From Escherichia coli (GTDB lineage: Bacteria > Pseudomonadota > Gammaproteobacteria > Enterobacterales > Enterobacteriaceae): a DNA stretch of 64,000 nucleotides. The stretch is from the NCBI RefSeq assembly GCF_030013205.1, contig NZ_CP122648.1; one strand, 5' to 3'. The notes under the pieces were generated by a model. It was not told the origin of the DNA and ran no database searches. It saw only the letters and a program-made list of their open reading frames with translations. This document shows positions 58,651-64,000 of this stretch, one piece after another. Numbering within the stretch: the stretch's first letter is position 1; each line of letters opens with the position of its first letter. The position numbers were made by a program, and so were the translations under genes.

Positions 58651-59808
58651 TCACTCCACCTTTTCATCAATCCAGTCCGCCCACCACTGCATCATCTCCC
58701 GGCGCTTATCGAGATACTGAGCATGGTTGTAAATCCCGCGCACAGATCCGCCGTTGGCATGTGCCAGTTGCACTTCAATAGCATCAGCAGGCCATTCGTG
58801 CTCGTTCATAATCGTGCTGAATTCATGCCTGAATCCGTGACCGCTTTCCAGACCTTCATAGCCGATTTGTTTGATCACAAGCAGTACAGCGTTCTCGCAG
58901 ATTGGCTTCTTCTTATCGTTGCGCCCGGCAAAAACAAACTCTGATACTGGTTTAGTGATTGAGCTTAGTGTAGTGAGAAGTTCAACCACCTGGTCTGACA
59001 TCGGGACAACATGAATTTTGCGTCCCTTCATCACACTGGCGTCGATGGTGATAATCCTGTTTTCAAAATCGACGTTCTTCCATAGCATGGAACGAAGCTC
59101 TTTTGTTCTTAGGGCTGTGTAGCGTAAAACTTTGGTCGCAATGAGCGATACGATACTTCCTGAAAATGTTGCAAGTGCTTTGTTGAATGCCGGGATCTGG
59201 TCGGCAGGTAAAAACGGGAAGTTCTTCTTGCGGTATCCCTTCATGGCGTCAGCAAGGTCAGGTGCCGGGTTATATTTAGCCCTACCAGTAACAATAGCGT
59301 AACGGAAAACCTCGCCGCATCTTCTGCGTGCTTTGTTGGCTCGCTCCATTGCACCGCGATCTTCAAATCTGCGGATTACTTCCAGAAGTTGCATCGGCTC
59401 AATATCCTGAATTTCAAGGCCGCCGATGATAGGTAAAATGTCGTCATCAAACATTTTTGCAAGTTCATTTGCATAGCCTACTGACCAGACTTGCTTCTTG
59501 TGCTCGTACCATTCCTTGTAAATGGCGCTAAAGGAATTGTTGTTAGACGAAGCCTTTTTCGCCTTTACCGGATCGATGCCAACCGAGATGTCTTTCCTCG
59601 CAGTCCATGCTTTATCCCTTGCCTCTTGCAAAGTCATAAGCGGATATTTTCCGACGGTCAGGATTTTCTCCTTACCGTCAATCTTGTAGCGAAGCTGCCA
59701 TACCTTTTTCCCTGATACAGGGACATAAAGATACAGGCCATTACCATCGAGTAGGCGGTATGGTTTTTCTTTCGGCTTTGCTGCTTCAATCTGCTTAACG
59801 GTGAGCAT
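58651..59808 (-). CDS. intS: P4-type tyrosine integrase (IntS-like, N-terminal DUF4102 arm-binding domain)
   Basis: MLTVKQIEAAKPKEKPYRLLDGNGLYLYVPVSGKKVWQLRYKIDGKEKILTVGKYP…; catalytic R…HxxR…Y region near the C-terminus; start at internal Met of ORF 58651-59844. Confidence 0.88.
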   Translation of the reverse strand: MLTVKQIEAAKPKEKPYRLLDGNGLYLYVPVSGKKVWQLRYKIDGKEKILTVGKYPLMTLQEARDKAWTARKDISVGIDPVKAKKASSNNNSFSAIYKEWYEHKKQVWSVGYANELAKMFDDDILPIIGGLEIQDIEPMQLLEVIRRFEDRGAMERANKARRRCGEVFRYAIVTGRAKYNPAPDLADAMKGYRKKNFPFLPADQIPAFNKALATFSGSIVSLIATKVLRYTALRTKELRSMLWKNVDFENRIITIDASVMKGRKIHVVPMSDQVVELLTTLSSITKPVSEFVFAGRNDKKKPICENAVLLVIKQIGYEGLESGHGFRHEFSTIMNEHEWPADAIEVQLAHANGGSVRGIYNHAQYLDKRREMMQWWADWIDEKVE

Positions 59809-59969
59809 GGGTAAAAATCCGGTGGGTAAAATTATTTTATCCACTTTTTACCCGTCATGGAGTGCGGCTGTCAACGATCTGACGCGAACCATGACGAACC
59901 GTGAATATACGGAAGGCTTGATATTCAGGGTATTTTGCGGACTGGTACGGATGGGAGCGAACTGATAAA

Positions 59970-59988
59970 TGGTGTCCCTGCAGAAATC
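59970..59988 (-). repeat. Degenerate att-core repeat derived from the argW 3' end
   Basis: tggtgtccctgcagaaatc versus the reverse complement of the argW 3' end tggtgtcccctgcaggaatc (one deletion, one mismatch); no tRNA body. Confidence 0.5.
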
Positions 59989-60205
59989 ATCTTAATTATT
60001 ATCATATTGATTTATATGTTATTTATTTTAGCCATCTTGTTTTTGTACCCGTTTTGTACCCGTTTTATTCTATTCCCAATTTAAACTTCGATTCTGGAAA
60101 GGTGAGTAGGGGAGGTTATCATTTTATGTATCATTGTTGTAGACACAGAATAATTACTCGCCTATCCTCACTGTATACACACCATAGATACAGGAGTTAA
60201 CCCAC

Positions 60206-60454
60206 ATGCGCACACAGGTTGTATTGCAAAAATGGGGTAACAGCATTGCCCTTCGACTAACGGGAAACCTTAAAACCGTTCCGGGTTTTTCAGTGGGTGA
60301 TATCGTCAACGTTGAAATTAGTGAAAAAGGGCTTTTTGTAGAAAAGCCTGCACGCCGTCGCCTGAGTGAAGCCGAACTACTCGCCGGGATAACGCCAGTT
60401 ACAGCGCACGCTGACGAAATTGCCACCCCATTCAATGAGGAGGTTGATTACTGA
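60206..60454 (+). CDS. MazE/PemI-like antitoxin (AbrB/SpoVT-type swapped-hairpin)
   Basis: 82 aa, MRTQVVLQKWGNSIALRLTGNLKTVPGFSVGDIVNVEISEKGLFVEKP…; RBS aggag; stop overlaps the toxin start (TGATG). Confidence 0.75.
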   Translation: MRTQVVLQKWGNSIALRLTGNLKTVPGFSVGDIVNVEISEKGLFVEKPARRRLSEAELLAGITPVTAHADEIATPFNEEVDY

Positions 60455-60798
60455 TGTTTGTACCTAAGCGTGGTGATATTTGCTGGCTGGATTTTGAGCC
60501 GCAGAAAGGAAAAGAGATCGGAAAGTATCGCCCGGCACTCATACTATCCCATGAGCAATATAACCGACTCACCGGGCTTGTCATATGCTGCCCCATAAGT
60601 ACGAGCATACGAAATGCTCCCACAGAAGTTCCGGTAACAAATCTGGACGCCCCCAGCGTGGTAGCAACCACACTCATTCAAACCCTTGACTGGCGTCAGC
60701 GGAAAGCGCGCTTAATCACAGAGGCAGAAGATGGGGTATTTAATGATGTGCTTGAAAGAGTCATTACTCTGATTGGTGGAGAGCATCTGCTTAAGTAA
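60454..60798 (+). CDS. MazF/PemK-family endoribonuclease toxin
   Basis: 114 aa, MFVPKRGDICWLDFEPQKGKEIGKYRPALILSHEQYNRLTGLVICCPISTS…; translationally coupled to the upstream antitoxin. Confidence 0.75.
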   Translation: MFVPKRGDICWLDFEPQKGKEIGKYRPALILSHEQYNRLTGLVICCPISTSIRNAPTEVPVTNLDAPSVVATTLIQTLDWRQRKARLITEAEDGVFNDVLERVITLIGGEHLLK

Positions 60799-60841
60799 AA
60801 GGAGGGCTGAGAAGCCCTCAACGTTACCGGAAATTTCCTTG

Positions 60842-62113
60842 CTATTCTTTCCAGTCAATCCCATCCAGTAAGCACCCTGCCTCATATTGCCCCACCACCC
60901 AGTCAAGGTTACAGGACTCATAGAACGCGAGGCGATTATACTGAGGCTCGTTTTTTACCAGGCCACGAACGGAACCACGCTGCCAGTACAGACACAGATT
61001 GGCAAGAGGTGTGATCAATACAGCATTGTCCGGGAAAAATGGAACGGTCACAGCCGGGAGATTCCCCAGAACGGGATTTTTAATGATTTCCTCGTTAAGC
61101 AAAATTTCCTGATTCATCTGCGATGGATCAAGACGGTTTATCAAAGGCCATTGTTTACGGACCAGCGTATTGTGACTGCATACGGCCACAATGCCTTCCT
61201 GCCACTGTTCATCAATCATGGATTGCCAGGCATCCAGAACGAGCGCATCTATCGTATGGTGTGTACCGCGTATATTACTTTTCGGTGATGAGACAGAAAG
61301 GCCGCTGATAACCCTTCCCGCCGCTTCATTTCGAAACTTCTGCAACCAGCCCACGCCGCAATCGTCACGCCCCGGATATGTTCCGGGATCTGATACATCG
61401 GCATAGTGCGTACCGTTAAAACCAATCTGAATCAAATCCAGCCATTTCTGGCGTTCAAAAGCAGCCCGGGCGCTTCCTTCAAGACCGTTTGCGGATGCGT
61501 GAGCATCAACATTGTCGTAGTTCAGCGCAAAATCAAAATTAACCTGCTCGCAGCGGTAGCCCCTTGAAACCAGTGAATGCGCCTGTAGTGGCGAGCGGCG
61601 CTCGTGAGGTGGCGATGTACGTGCTAACGGCCCCGAAGCGTCTACCAGCACAACCTGACCTGATATATCCGTAACAGGCACGGGAGTTATTTCAGCAAGG
61701 AAATTTGCCTGCCATCCACTGGCAAGCGTTGCACTCTGGCGGGGGACGGGTTCAACTTCTGACGAATAGCGCGCAGTGTCACCGGAAAAGTGCAAATCCT
61801 TCGGATGCTTTCCGGTTATCGACTCGATAGCGCAATTGAAAACCATCTGAGACTGTTGATTTCGTTGTGATACAACAGAATCAGCAGTGCAATTATAACG
61901 CTCAATGCCGTCGTTATTACCCCCACCGCTTGCAGTATGCAGGGTGTGAAGCTCAAGCTCACGCTCCAGTTTTTGATATTCATTGTCCAGCGCGCGACGC
62001 GTCTCATCGCTTATGCTTGCTGTGTTTGCTTTCAGGCGATTCCGGGACATTAATCCCCTGAGTCGGCTCACTATATCAGCGCCGTGCAAATGTGGAGTAT
62101 TCAGACCGCCCAT
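60842..62113 (-). CDS. P2-family major capsid protein-like (GpN-like), tentative
   Basis: Segments (…CEQVNFDF…, …IGFNG…GVGWLQKFRNEA…, …LGNLPAVTVPFFPDNAVLITPLANL…YESCNLDWVVGQYEAGCL…) resemble remembered P2 GpN; start placed at the Met whose ATG overlaps the upstream gene's stop; listed ORF extends to 62254. Confidence 0.5.
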   Translation of the reverse strand: MGGLNTPHLHGADIVSRLRGLMSRNRLKANTASISDETRRALDNEYQKLERELELHTLHTASGGGNNDGIERYNCTADSVVSQRNQQSQMVFNCAIESITGKHPKDLHFSGDTARYSSEVEPVPRQSATLASGWQANFLAEITPVPVTDISGQVVLVDASGPLARTSPPHERRSPLQAHSLVSRGYRCEQVNFDFALNYDNVDAHASANGLEGSARAAFERQKWLDLIQIGFNGTHYADVSDPGTYPGRDDCGVGWLQKFRNEAAGRVISGLSVSSPKSNIRGTHHTIDALVLDAWQSMIDEQWQEGIVAVCSHNTLVRKQWPLINRLDPSQMNQEILLNEEIIKNPVLGNLPAVTVPFFPDNAVLITPLANLCLYWQRGSVRGLVKNEPQYNRLAFYESCNLDWVVGQYEAGCLLDGIDWKE

Positions 62114-62823
62114 TACTGCCACCCCCGGCAGAGTTCTCTGCCCTCCGCAAGGTCGCGCATTTTTTCTGGATTCTGTCGCGCCGCGCTCCATTGTACAGGT
62201 GAAGGGGCGCTCCTGATTGCGCAGCTTACTGAATCCGGGAGTTTCTCCGGGCAATAACGCAGCGGGCTGGAGGTGTCGCTTTCGGTATCGTTAATCCGGC
62301 CGCGAATCATCCCGACACTTTCAGCAGTATCTGCCGCTTTCAGTGTTTCGCATATTTTCTTTTCTGCGTTATACAGCGGCTGGCCAAGTAGCTCACATAA
62401 ACCACGAATCAATAACAGAACAGGGGTCAGCTCGTTAATCAGTTCGGGAAGTGCTTTTGCAAATATCTCTGCCCGCAACTTATTATCAATGCTTTCGTAA
62501 GCACAACCAGCCTCTGCCGCGTTATAACGACACTCCAGTAGCCTGATGCGCGCTTCATCATGCAATACCCGCAGACGCTCAAGATTTTCTCGCGCCACAC
62601 CCGCCTGAATGGATAATTTCGCGGAGGCTTCCGTTTTTACGCCCAGCGCAGACAGGATTGAGTTCTGCCAGTCACGATCGAGAGATTCCAGCTCCCCTTT
62701 CGTCTGTTCGATAGTCGCTTCCAGATTGGTGATTAATGATTCCTGTTCACTGAGTTTTGCCATGGCTGTATCAAACTGTGCTTTACATACCTGATGTTCG
62801 GCGCTTGCCTGAGTTATATCCAT
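62113..62823 (-). CDS. Coiled-coil phage morphogenesis protein (scaffold/Sid-like), tentative
   Basis: 236 aa, helical N-terminus; immediately upstream of and translationally coupled (ATGA) to the capsid-like gene. Confidence 0.35.
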   Translation of the reverse strand: MDITQASAEHQVCKAQFDTAMAKLSEQESLITNLEATIEQTKGELESLDRDWQNSILSALGVKTEASAKLSIQAGVARENLERLRVLHDEARIRLLECRYNAAEAGCAYESIDNKLRAEIFAKALPELINELTPVLLLIRGLCELLGQPLYNAEKKICETLKAADTAESVGMIRGRINDTESDTSSPLRYCPEKLPDSVSCAIRSAPSPVQWSAARQNPEKMRDLAEGRELCRGWQ

Positions 62824-62949
62824 TATTTGCTCCTGTAATACATTTTTTTACTTACGCCGATTTTTTCCATATTGCGTAATACATTCCAGCCGATTTTGTT
62901 CTCGTAATACGCTCACAATACTGTTGTATTACGCTTTCTTATATCGCGG
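62824..62949. promoter_or_regulatory. Divergent intergenic control region with repeated GTAATACATT / CGTAATAC motifs
   Basis: gtaatacatt at 62835-62844 and 62876-62885; cgtaatac at 62903-62910; gtattacg at 62926-62933; gccgatttt repeated twice. Confidence 0.5.
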
Positions 62950-63222
62950 GTGTTAAATCCCGGCATAAACAATCAGGGAGGCAACACGATGAAAAAACAA
63001 AAGAAAATGCGATGCGTATTACGCTGTATTCGTATCCCGCACGAAATCGACCATAAAATAAATCAGATATGTGAGGACAGAGAGATGAACTACTCCCAGT
63101 GCGTCAGAATGTTTATCAGTCAGGGAATTAAGGCCGGGGAAAAGCAGGAAGAAGACCACAACGGGCGCAATGTAGCGGGGGATGTGTGGGCCTGGGCAAA
63201 TGACCAGAACCACACGACGTAA
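62950..63222 (+). CDS. Small ribbon-helix-helix-like DNA-binding protein, tentative
   Basis: …MRCVLRCIRIPHEIDHKINQICEDREMNYSQCVRMFISQGIKAG… fits a beta-strand then helix-helix RHH pattern; true start may be the Met at 62989. Confidence 0.4.
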   Translation: MLNPGINNQGGNTMKKQKKMRCVLRCIRIPHEIDHKINQICEDREMNYSQCVRMFISQGIKAGEKQEEDHNGRNVAGDVWAWANDQNHTT

Positions 63223-63272
63223 TACAGAAATAACGCAGCCGGTCACACTCGCTGGCTGTGTTATACAAATCA

Positions 63273-63455
63273 CTATGAAGTTTTCGACTTCCTGCGCTTA
63301 GTAATGCGTACAAACGACTCAAGCGTACAAAAACAAGCCCCACACTCAATATTGTTGCACTGGTAATACGTTCTGTAGATGTTTTGTTCGTGTTCTTCCA
63401 ACGAACGACCACGGGTGCGAGCTGAAGCGCCACAGGCCGGGCAAGGGAAAGACAT
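63273..63455 (-). CDS. ogr: Ogr/Delta-family zinc-finger late-gene activator
   Basis: 60 aa, CPACG…YYQCNNIECGACFCTLESFVR matches the Ogr C2C2 pattern. Confidence 0.7.
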   Translation of the reverse strand: MSFPCPACGASARTRGRSLEEHEQNIYRTYYQCNNIECGACFCTLESFVRITKRRKSKTS

Positions 63456-63745
63456 ATCGCGCTCCTCTTACTGGCGTGAAATTTAACCTATTATATCTTC
63501 CGTTGCCTCCTCTGGCTGTATCAAATAAATCCGCGATGGTCGCTGCGTATTACGCGCAGACACACCGTTCCCATGCTCACTCCTCACATTCCCCGTATCA
63601 ATTCTCTCTTGCCGTAAGAACGGCTCTGGCTGGCGATAAAACTAACCCGGTCAGGCATTCCCGCAGTCTTTAGCGAAAGATGTAATTTACCCCCTGAAAC
63701 GCGGGCTGTTCCCCCGTCACCTGCGCGCGAAAAACTCACCGTTTT

Positions 63746-63844
63746 TTGTGCACGCACGAAATCGCCCTCCGGGCGCGCCAGTACCGGGCCGGATGGGCAA
63801 AAAGTTACTCTAAAAAATTGTGCAAATTTGTGCACTTTTGTGCA
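63746..63844. repeat. Phased TTGTGCA direct repeats (4 copies, last 3 spaced 10 bp)
   Basis: ttgtgca at 63746-63752, 63818-63824, 63828-63834 and 63838-63844. Confidence 0.5.
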
Positions 63845-64000
63845 GATGAACAACAGCGTCAAAAAGAGTGCTTTTGAGAGATTTTTTATGGCAACTGCGC
63901 CGCGTGTATTACGTTTTTACCATCCCCGCCGCGCATGTACATACTTCATTTTTCTGCCAAACAACAGGGCAACTCCCCGTGACTGACAGCCCCAAAAAAT

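Follow-up and report, generated by a model that had tools for sequence, protein, structure and literature searches.

A probable P2-family cos site with phased TTGTGCA repeats in a P4-like satellite island of Escherichia coli

Introduction

Four copies of the heptamer TTGTGCA lie close to the end of a stretch of 64,000 nucleotides of Escherichia coli DNA (contig NZ_CP122648.1, hereafter the window), and three of them follow each other in phase. The question raised by this locus is what such repeats are for. A sequence-only reading had taken them for a protein-recognition array, i.e., iterons or activator sites, and had doubted the small open reading frame (ORF) that overlaps them. In this study, the repeats were compared with the homologous DNA of other E. 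coli genomes and of P2-family phages.

Results

Phased TTGTGCA repeats

The four copies were found on the plus strand at 63746-63752, 63818-63824, 63828-63834, and 63838-63844, and the spacing of the last three (63818, 63828, and 63838) is exactly 10 bp, both as the sequence-only reading had claimed. The spacers of this distal array are 3 nt each and A/T-rich. The copy at 63746 precedes the first copy of the array by 72 bp and is a conserved element itself. The heptamer was not over-represented in the window overall, i.e., 17 copies were counted and 14.9 were expected. Only one run of three identical 7-mers spaced by a constant 9-12 bp was found in the real 64 kb, at 63818. In first-order Markov resamples, the mean was 0.005 such triples per resample, and only 1 of 200 resamples had any. 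The clustering of TTGTGCA is far beyond chance.

The features discussed below are as follows, with signed positions relative to the predicted core.

63273-63455, minus strand: Ogr/Delta zinc-finger late-gene activator of the satellite (PF04606 Ogr_Delta, E = 3.3e-11; the RefSeq annotation agrees)
63584-63862, minus strand: mechanical ORF of 92 aa with a TTG start over the putative cos, judged not to be a gene
63688-63844, no strand assigned: whole putative cos module of the satellite, approximately 157 bp (-15 to +142 relative to the core)
63703-63721, minus strand: predicted cohesive-end (cosN-like) core, by homology to the P2, P4, 186, and PSP3 ends
63746-63752, plus strand: proximal TTGTGCA unit (+44 from the core start)
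63812-63817, plus strand: A-tract AAAAAA directly before the array (+109 to +115, 1.8-2.0 bits in 89 in-register P88-type blocks)
63818-63844, plus strand: distal array of three TTGTGCA units at 63818, 63828, and 63838 (+116, +126, and +136)

An Rfam scan of 58000-64000 at E <= 1 returned zero matches, i.e., no known RNA family. Two terminator-like matches in 63200-64000 were rejected, because they are the palindromic GTGCA/TGCAC cores of neighbouring repeats with a 5-bp stem.

The satellite island

The last approximately 4 kb of the window are part of a P4-like satellite island, and the whole element lies on the minus strand. An identical copy of the island was found in E. coli ETEC1748 (locus L001), in which the window coordinate equals the L001 coordinate plus 51249. 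The island is integrated at tRNA-Arg and is approximately 12.5 kb, a size that is approximate with the far boundary unmapped. In the search for an att repeat at the far end, the sole repeat of at least 15 nt falls inside the two integrase genes.

The island starts with tRNA-Arg, a tyrosine integrase, AlpA (PF05930), an Icd-like protein, and four small ORFs. These are followed by an 889-aa alpha-type primase (phrog_1139), a second integrase (333 aa), and an intergenic region of 1.17 kb. The last part is comprised of Ogr/Delta (PF04606), a small divergent ORF, a 236-aa protein, a 423-aa major capsid protein (PF05125), and mazEF. A prophage remnant with intS and gtrABC is placed after the island. 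No terminase gene was found in the island by annotation, Pfam, or PHROG. The TTGTGCA repeats are within the 1.17-kb intergenic region, approximately 360 bp upstream of the ogr start codon, and ogr is the first gene downstream of the putative cos on the minus strand.

Several genes of the island and its surroundings were also recorded. The capsid gene (60842-62113, minus strand) encodes a P2-family protein of 423 aa, in which the Pfam match begins at residue 132 after an N-terminal extension of approximately 120 aa. This protein is just 35-38% identical to the helper gpN. The gene preceding it (62113-62823, minus strand) encodes the 236-aa protein, which had no family match. Homologs of sid, psu, and epsilon were not seen in the island, and a P4-like satellite that encodes a capsid protein may be unusual. 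The small divergent ORF that separates the 236-aa gene from ogr (62989-63222, plus strand, 77 aa in RefSeq) had been taken for a ribbon-helix-helix (RHH) protein, an assignment that found no match in Pfam or PHROG. At the far end of the island, a pair of MazE/AbrB antitoxin and PemK/MazF toxin is encoded at 60206-60798 on the plus strand, at the site that in P4-like satellites holds variable defence cargo.

The second tyrosine-integrase-family gene (L001 13382-14383, 333 aa, Int_N and Phage_integrase) is directly downstream of the primase gene and beside the putative origin described below. This integrase is additional to the tRNA-proximal one and might serve in dimer resolution. Beyond the window, a non-coding gap of approximately 550 bp separates the AlpA and Icd-like genes (L001 18578-19130). 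The comparable position in P1 and P4 holds the antisense or immunity RNA.

The region at 56802-59844 holds an intS-type integrase and an O-antigen modification cassette, i.e., GtrA, DUF2142, and glycosyltransferase, in tandem with the satellite. Further upstream (L001 1-8559), an Arc-family gene, a truncated tailspike gene, and IS1 were observed. Two or more elements are thus stacked at tRNA-Arg. No att repeat of at least 15 nt was detected between the stacked elements.

Homology of the repeat region to P2-family phages

The region 63456-64000 was searched by sensitive BLAST against 5,426 complete E. coli genomes. The complete region was present in just 52 of them. More than 1,100 genomes had a piece of approximately 165 bp, i.e., window positions ~63679-63845, with approximately 80% identity; it is unannotated there and ends at the third repeat. 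The same piece was recognized in the P2-family phages P88, 500465-2, Klebsiella 3LV2017, and others. By BLAST, it is the sole stretch that is common to the satellite and the P88-type P2-family phages, and in the alignments the flanks of satellite and phages are unrelated on either side of the module.

In the phages and prophages, the homologous block is in the non-coding gap that follows the portal gene, i.e., 290-560 bp past the portal stop codon in five loci (L003, L004, L007, L008, and L214). In P2, 186, and PSP3, the cohesive end is 187-198 bp from the portal gene (gpQ). P88-type portal-plus-cos modules were found in 1,097 of the 5,426 complete E. coli genomes, about a fifth.

The joined right and left ends of P2 and of P4 were aligned with the window and four phage blocks. 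The plus strand at 63703-63721, GGGCTGTTCCCCCGTCACC, aligned to GTGCTTTCCCCGCCTCGCC, the reverse complement of the 19-nt P2/P4 cohesive end GGCGAGGCGGGGAAAGCAC, with 13 of 19 positions identical. The reverse complement of the 186/PSP3 end also aligns here, and the flanks of the core are GCGC-rich. From this 13/19 identity to the P2 core, the cut positions can be placed by homology, and the predicted 19-nt 5' overhang would be GGTGACGGGGGAACAGCCC on the minus strand. The unit at 63746 aligned to TTTTAATGCA in P2 and P4, at the right edge of a stretch that is near-identical between the two. The three phased TTGTGCA units aligned to three ATGCA units in P2 and P4.

The cos sites of phage P2 and satellite P4 were reportedly studied by Ziermann and Calendar in 1990 (Gene 96:9), a paper cited in PMC9122126 and PMC3931495. 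In the literature searched, the core and array sequences were found in no paper, no published experiment on a P88-type cos was found, and the repeats of the P2 cos were not described in the terminase reviews.

Conservation of the geometry

Two sets of phage loci were used. For the P2-type set, 80 loci were gathered via the portal protein with no selection on repeats, and 72 distinct cos regions were obtained. The portal-based search gave mostly P2-type loci; therefore, the P88-type set was gathered by a 17-nt core anchor, which gave 120 loci and 102 distinct blocks. The anchor fixes 17 nt of the core, not the repeats. The anchored loci comprise approximately 95 phages and three satellites of the present type (L118, L129, and L186), and two chance matches to the anchor (L092 and L098) had no repeats.

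In the P2-type set (n = 72), positions -8 to +55 are near-invariant, +56 to +112 carry approximately 0 bits, and conservation then returns in a small island. ATGCA was present at +44 in 69 of the 72 blocks, at +116 in 51 (shifted by one in 8 more), at +126 in 38 (9 more), and also at +136/+139. In P2, P4, 186, and PSP3, for which the annotated cohesive ends come from experiment, ATGCA is at +44, +116, +126, and +135-139.

In the 102 distinct P88-type blocks, information per column is high from about -15 to +142 and falls to approximately 0 right after +142. TTGTGCA was present at +44 in 90 blocks, at +116 in 88, at +126 in 81, and at +136 in 64, and GTGCA was present at +138 in 80. Conservation is thus lowest for the third unit (exact in 64/102), which may be dispensable. 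Among the in-register P88-type blocks, array units 2 and 3 average 1.86 bits, the spacers 1.46 bits, and the 7 nt past the array 0.3 bits. The A-tract before the array is visible in nearly all aligned P88-type rows. As a side observation, the phage DNA past the array is hypervariable.

The layout of the right arm derived in this analysis, i.e., a single unit at ~+44 followed by phased units at ~+116, +126, and ~+136, is common to both cos types. The repeats are retained in phages whose identity to the reference ranges over 68-100% for the portal and 55-99% for gpM. The density of TTGTGCA is 22/kb inside the putative cos vs 0.07/kb in the remaining 1.1 Mb of the loci, a difference of approximately 300-fold.

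Other members of the family were also inspected. The right arm of phiCTX (L212, NC_003278) has CTGCR-type units, and its record annotates repeats R4-R6 across cos; the phased-repeat detector made no call on these repeats. In HP1 (L213), the right arm of cos has TTTCCGTG three times. These sequences suggest that lineage-specific repeat motifs may be a family-wide feature of the P2-family cos right arm.

Satellite and helper-type prophage in one strain

Strain E94 harbours the satellite together with a P88-type prophage. Their cos regions were compared in a gapped alignment, in which a 1-nt indel is present, as follows.

Left flank (-40 to -16): 16/25 identical
-15 to -1: 15/15 identical
Core: 18/19 identical
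Proximal unit: 7/7 identical
+51 to +108: 40/58 identical
A-tract: 6/7 identical
Array: 26/27 identical
Right flank (+143 to +185): 24/43 identical

A segment common to satellite and helper between unrelated flanks fits the description in PMC9122126. At least one further copy of the cos block was found in 20 of 25 listed satellite-carrying genomes vs approximately 21% of genomes overall; the satellite genomes are clonally related, and this excess of second copies is only suggestive. For ETEC1748, a second copy was not among the matches listed.

In the satellite L186, the identity to the window stops exactly after the third repeat (63844), and unrelated DNA comes next. It has been proposed that the edge of cos is a boundary of a recombination or defence hotspot (PMC9122126), and the break in L186 fits this idea.

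The 92-aa ORF

The 92-aa minus-strand ORF at 63584-63862 exists as a mechanical ORF that overlaps the array, and the suspicion of the sequence-only reading that it is spurious was borne out by its variation. Both its start and its stop differ among five satellite copies that are 95-100% identical. The stop is displaced by a 1-bp indel near 63675, and the start region by a substitution of CAACAG to CAATAG, which creates a stop codon a short way upstream of the array. In L186, unrelated DNA begins directly behind the third repeat and takes the place of the upstream part of the ORF. The 92-aa product had no match among the Pfam and PHROG families.

If the repeats encoded the N-terminal part of a genuine small protein, either this one or the 90-aa hypothetical protein WP_000281924.1, an ORF should be kept along with them. 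Each of the five satellite copies does have an ORF of 83-92 aa over the array region, and the 90-aa protein is annotated by PGAP in 97%-identical genomes. That protein is a different ORF, annotated across the putative cos at L002 8421-8693 and L215 522-794, whereas PGAP annotated nothing there in six 100%-identical genomes. The conserved DNA block is also shared with phages whose spacer has indels and in which other small ORFs are annotated. The outcome that would have refuted the sequence-only reading, i.e., a conserved ORF in homologs that are devoid of the repeats, was the reverse of what was found: the repeats are conserved and the ORF is not. A coding role of the repeats is therefore extremely improbable. 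The 92-aa ORF is very probably spurious, and WP_000281924.1 probably reflects repeated miscalling of a gene over cos.

Iterons, activator sites, and the likely origin

The sequence-only reading was supported in that the repeats look like a recognition array under selective conservation, whereas its assignment of an iteron or activator function was not supported. The idea that the repeats are iterons of a replication origin, or sites for an Ogr-like or RHH activator or repressor of the island, draws on the three direct repeats phased at 10 bp and on their intergenic position between the primase operon and ogr. P4 itself has three contiguous 10-bp "type 2" repeats in its ori. Origin iterons of the P4 ori/crr type, bound by the alpha primase-helicase, are expected only together with their cognate initiator and grouped about an AT-rich unwinding region. 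However, the same array is placed at the same distance from the cohesive-end homolog in approximately 95 P2-family phage loci without an alpha-type primase or RHH gene. In these phage loci TTGTGCA is virtually absent elsewhere, late-promoter regions included (0.07/kb).

Late promoters activated by Ogr/Delta in P2 and P4 have a partial dyad, TGT-N12-ACA, approximately 55 bp upstream of the start site and a -10 element. In 63400-64000, zero TGT-N12-ACA were found on either strand, and a promoter/terminator scan of 63200-64000 found no sigma-70-like promoter. When P4 9080-9440 was read directly, the type 1 (TGTTCACC) and type 2 (CACTTAAAGN) repeats of the P4 ori were unrelated in sequence to TTGTGCA. 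The P4 type 2 repeats were rejected as a homolog of the array on this ground.

A far better fit to an origin is a separate, dense array of GGTTACA around an AT-rich centre. Within L001 12837-13108 (272 bp), 13 of the 17 GGTTACA copies of L001 were found, with 2.3 copies expected in the whole locus. The GGTTACA/TGTAACC copies are in both orientations around the AT-rich centre, and the array is bracketed by a perfect inverted repeat of 31 nt (L001 12822-12852 and 13093-13123) with G/C runs. The region, L001 12820-13125, is approximately 70-375 bp past the end of the window, its copies start approximately 90 bp past that end, and it is found a short distance downstream of the genes for the primase and the second integrase. 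By its sequence organization, the GGTTACA array is a strong candidate for the replication origin of the satellite, i.e., the real iterons. An iteron or activator role of TTGTGCA itself is very unlikely.

Discussion

The TTGTGCA module as a probable cos site

The stretch 63688-63844 is probably the cos site of the island, copied from P88-type phages of the P2 family, with the repeats as its outer part and their units as contacts of the helper terminase. The identity as cos is favoured because of the homology, the portal-adjacent position, the geometry shared with P2, P4, 186, and PSP3, the conservation of the units, the near-absence of the motif outside cos, and the agreement of the satellite with the co-resident prophage. 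The site would be the sequence that the terminase of a helper phage must recognize and cut to package the satellite DNA, and its type would come from P88-like, i.e., Xuanwuvirus/Gemsvirus-type, P2-family phages.

The module is comprised of a core homologous to the 19-nt end, one TTGTGCA at +44, a poorly conserved spacer, and the A-tract with three TTGTGCA 10 bp apart. By analogy with other cos phages, the four units may be sequence-specific contacts for the helper terminase, most likely for the small subunit gpM. The units would lie on roughly one face of the DNA, and the A/T-rich spacers and the A-tract may help to bend the segment. The 10-bp phasing, the A/T spacers, and the A-tract suggest a DNA segment bent or wrapped in a way that would present successive units to a single protein assembly. 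The bent segment could position the large subunit for a staggered cut at the core.

The gpM protein belongs to Pfam Phage_term_smal (PF05944). It is the most diverged packaging protein between the cos types, i.e., 35-37% identity vs 42-47% for gpP and 45-48% for the portal protein, in a covariation of motif and gpM that comprises essentially two well-sampled lineages. The gpM subunit is favoured as the reader because of this divergence between the ATGCA and TTGTGCA lineages and because small subunits give site recognition in other cos phages. A reader encoded by the phage is preferred to a host factor, because the motif differs between phages of the same host.

Another way to read the module accepts the cos but gives the repeats a role other than small-subunit binding, i.e., a cosQ-like signal for termination or cut orientation, contacts of gpP, or a bend-forming element. 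The repeats indeed occupy the right arm, with the core between them and the portal and terminase genes, which is unlike lambda cosB, and an A-tract with A/T-rich spacers at a 10-bp period favours intrinsic curvature. However, conservation is stronger in the GC-rich unit cores than in the A/T-rich spacers (1.86 vs 1.46 bits), and the motif changes between lineages of the same host, i.e., ATGCA and TTGTGCA in E. coli phages. These two points argue for sequence-specific reading by a phage protein and against pure curvature or a host factor. A motif search found no IHF consensus. Such a role of the repeats is considered unlikely, and binding by gpM is retained as the preferred reading.

The switch of motif, i.e., ATGCA in the P2/186 type and TTGTGCA in the P88 type, together with the divergence of gpM, may make up a packaging-specificity code that ties a satellite to a helper lineage. 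More generally, the layout at +44 and +116 to +142 could be a lineage-specific address code read by the small terminase subunit. Changes of the unit (ATGCA, TTGTGCA, possibly CTGCR or TTTCCGTG) would then make specificity groups, to which satellites would be tied by copying. The present island would define a P88-type group, with a predicted new cohesive end GGTGACGGGGGAACAGCCC that P2 could not package. This broader generalization is put forward tentatively, at slightly under an even chance.

Comparison with known systems

The cos of P2 and P4 is the closest known system. The likenesses are the homologous core (13/19), the portal-adjacent position in phages, the status as the sole segment shared by satellite and helper, and the same offsets of the units. 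By such testable criteria, the TTGTGCA cos, as predicted from sequence, is a P2-family cos site. The differences are also clear. Here, the core is GGTGACGGGGGAACAGCCC (predicted, with cleavage placed by homology), whereas P2 and P4 have GGCGAGGCGGGGAAAGCAC. The unit is TTGTGCA instead of ATGCA, and all distal spacings are exactly 10 bp. The helper lineage is of the P88/Xuanwuvirus type, whose gpM shares only the above 35-37% identity with the P2-type gpM. In P4, cos is between psu and a defence hotspot, whereas the putative cos of the island is between the putative origin and ogr. What is new here is the core sequence, the TTGTGCA unit with strict 10-bp spacing, the P88-type helper lineage, and the position in the satellite genome.

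In phage lambda, the small terminase subunit gpNu1 recognizes cosB. The likeness of lambda cosB (R3-I1-R2-R1, bound by gpNu1 and IHF) to the present repeats concerns the proposed function only, i.e., short repeats beside a nicking site that would anchor the terminase complex and lend it sequence specificity. The lambda-type layout of cosQ, cosN, and cosB was described in PMC4669245 and PMC7617512. There is no sequence homology to lambda cosB, the terminase family is different (PF05944 here), and no IHF consensus was found by motif search. The units here are 7 nt, strictly phased at 10 bp, and approximately 100 bp from the predicted cut.

Phage phiCTX is a P2-family phage whose depositors marked short repeats flanking the cohesive end (R4-R6, NC_003278), with CTGCR-type units on the same arm. 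Its motif is different and its spacing is less regular. The type 2 repeats of the P4 ori (NC_001609 9176-9205) are superficially identical in having three units at a 10-bp period, and they were the model behind the iteron idea. The type 1 iterons of P4 are bound by the alpha protein. The type 2 sequence CACTTAAAGN is unrelated and sits in the ori, whereas the TTGTGCA array is also found in phages without the alpha protein.

Conclusions

Satellites spread only when a helper terminase recognizes their DNA; therefore, the cos type would set which phages mobilize the island and its cargo, i.e., MazEF and the capsid gene. The 157-bp module and its four units are testable determinants of helper-satellite specificity. 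As a marker, the module could be used to annotate cos in P2-family prophages and satellites, which would remove false calls like WP_000281924.1. The module is also a candidate minimal packaging signal for P88-type transducing particles.
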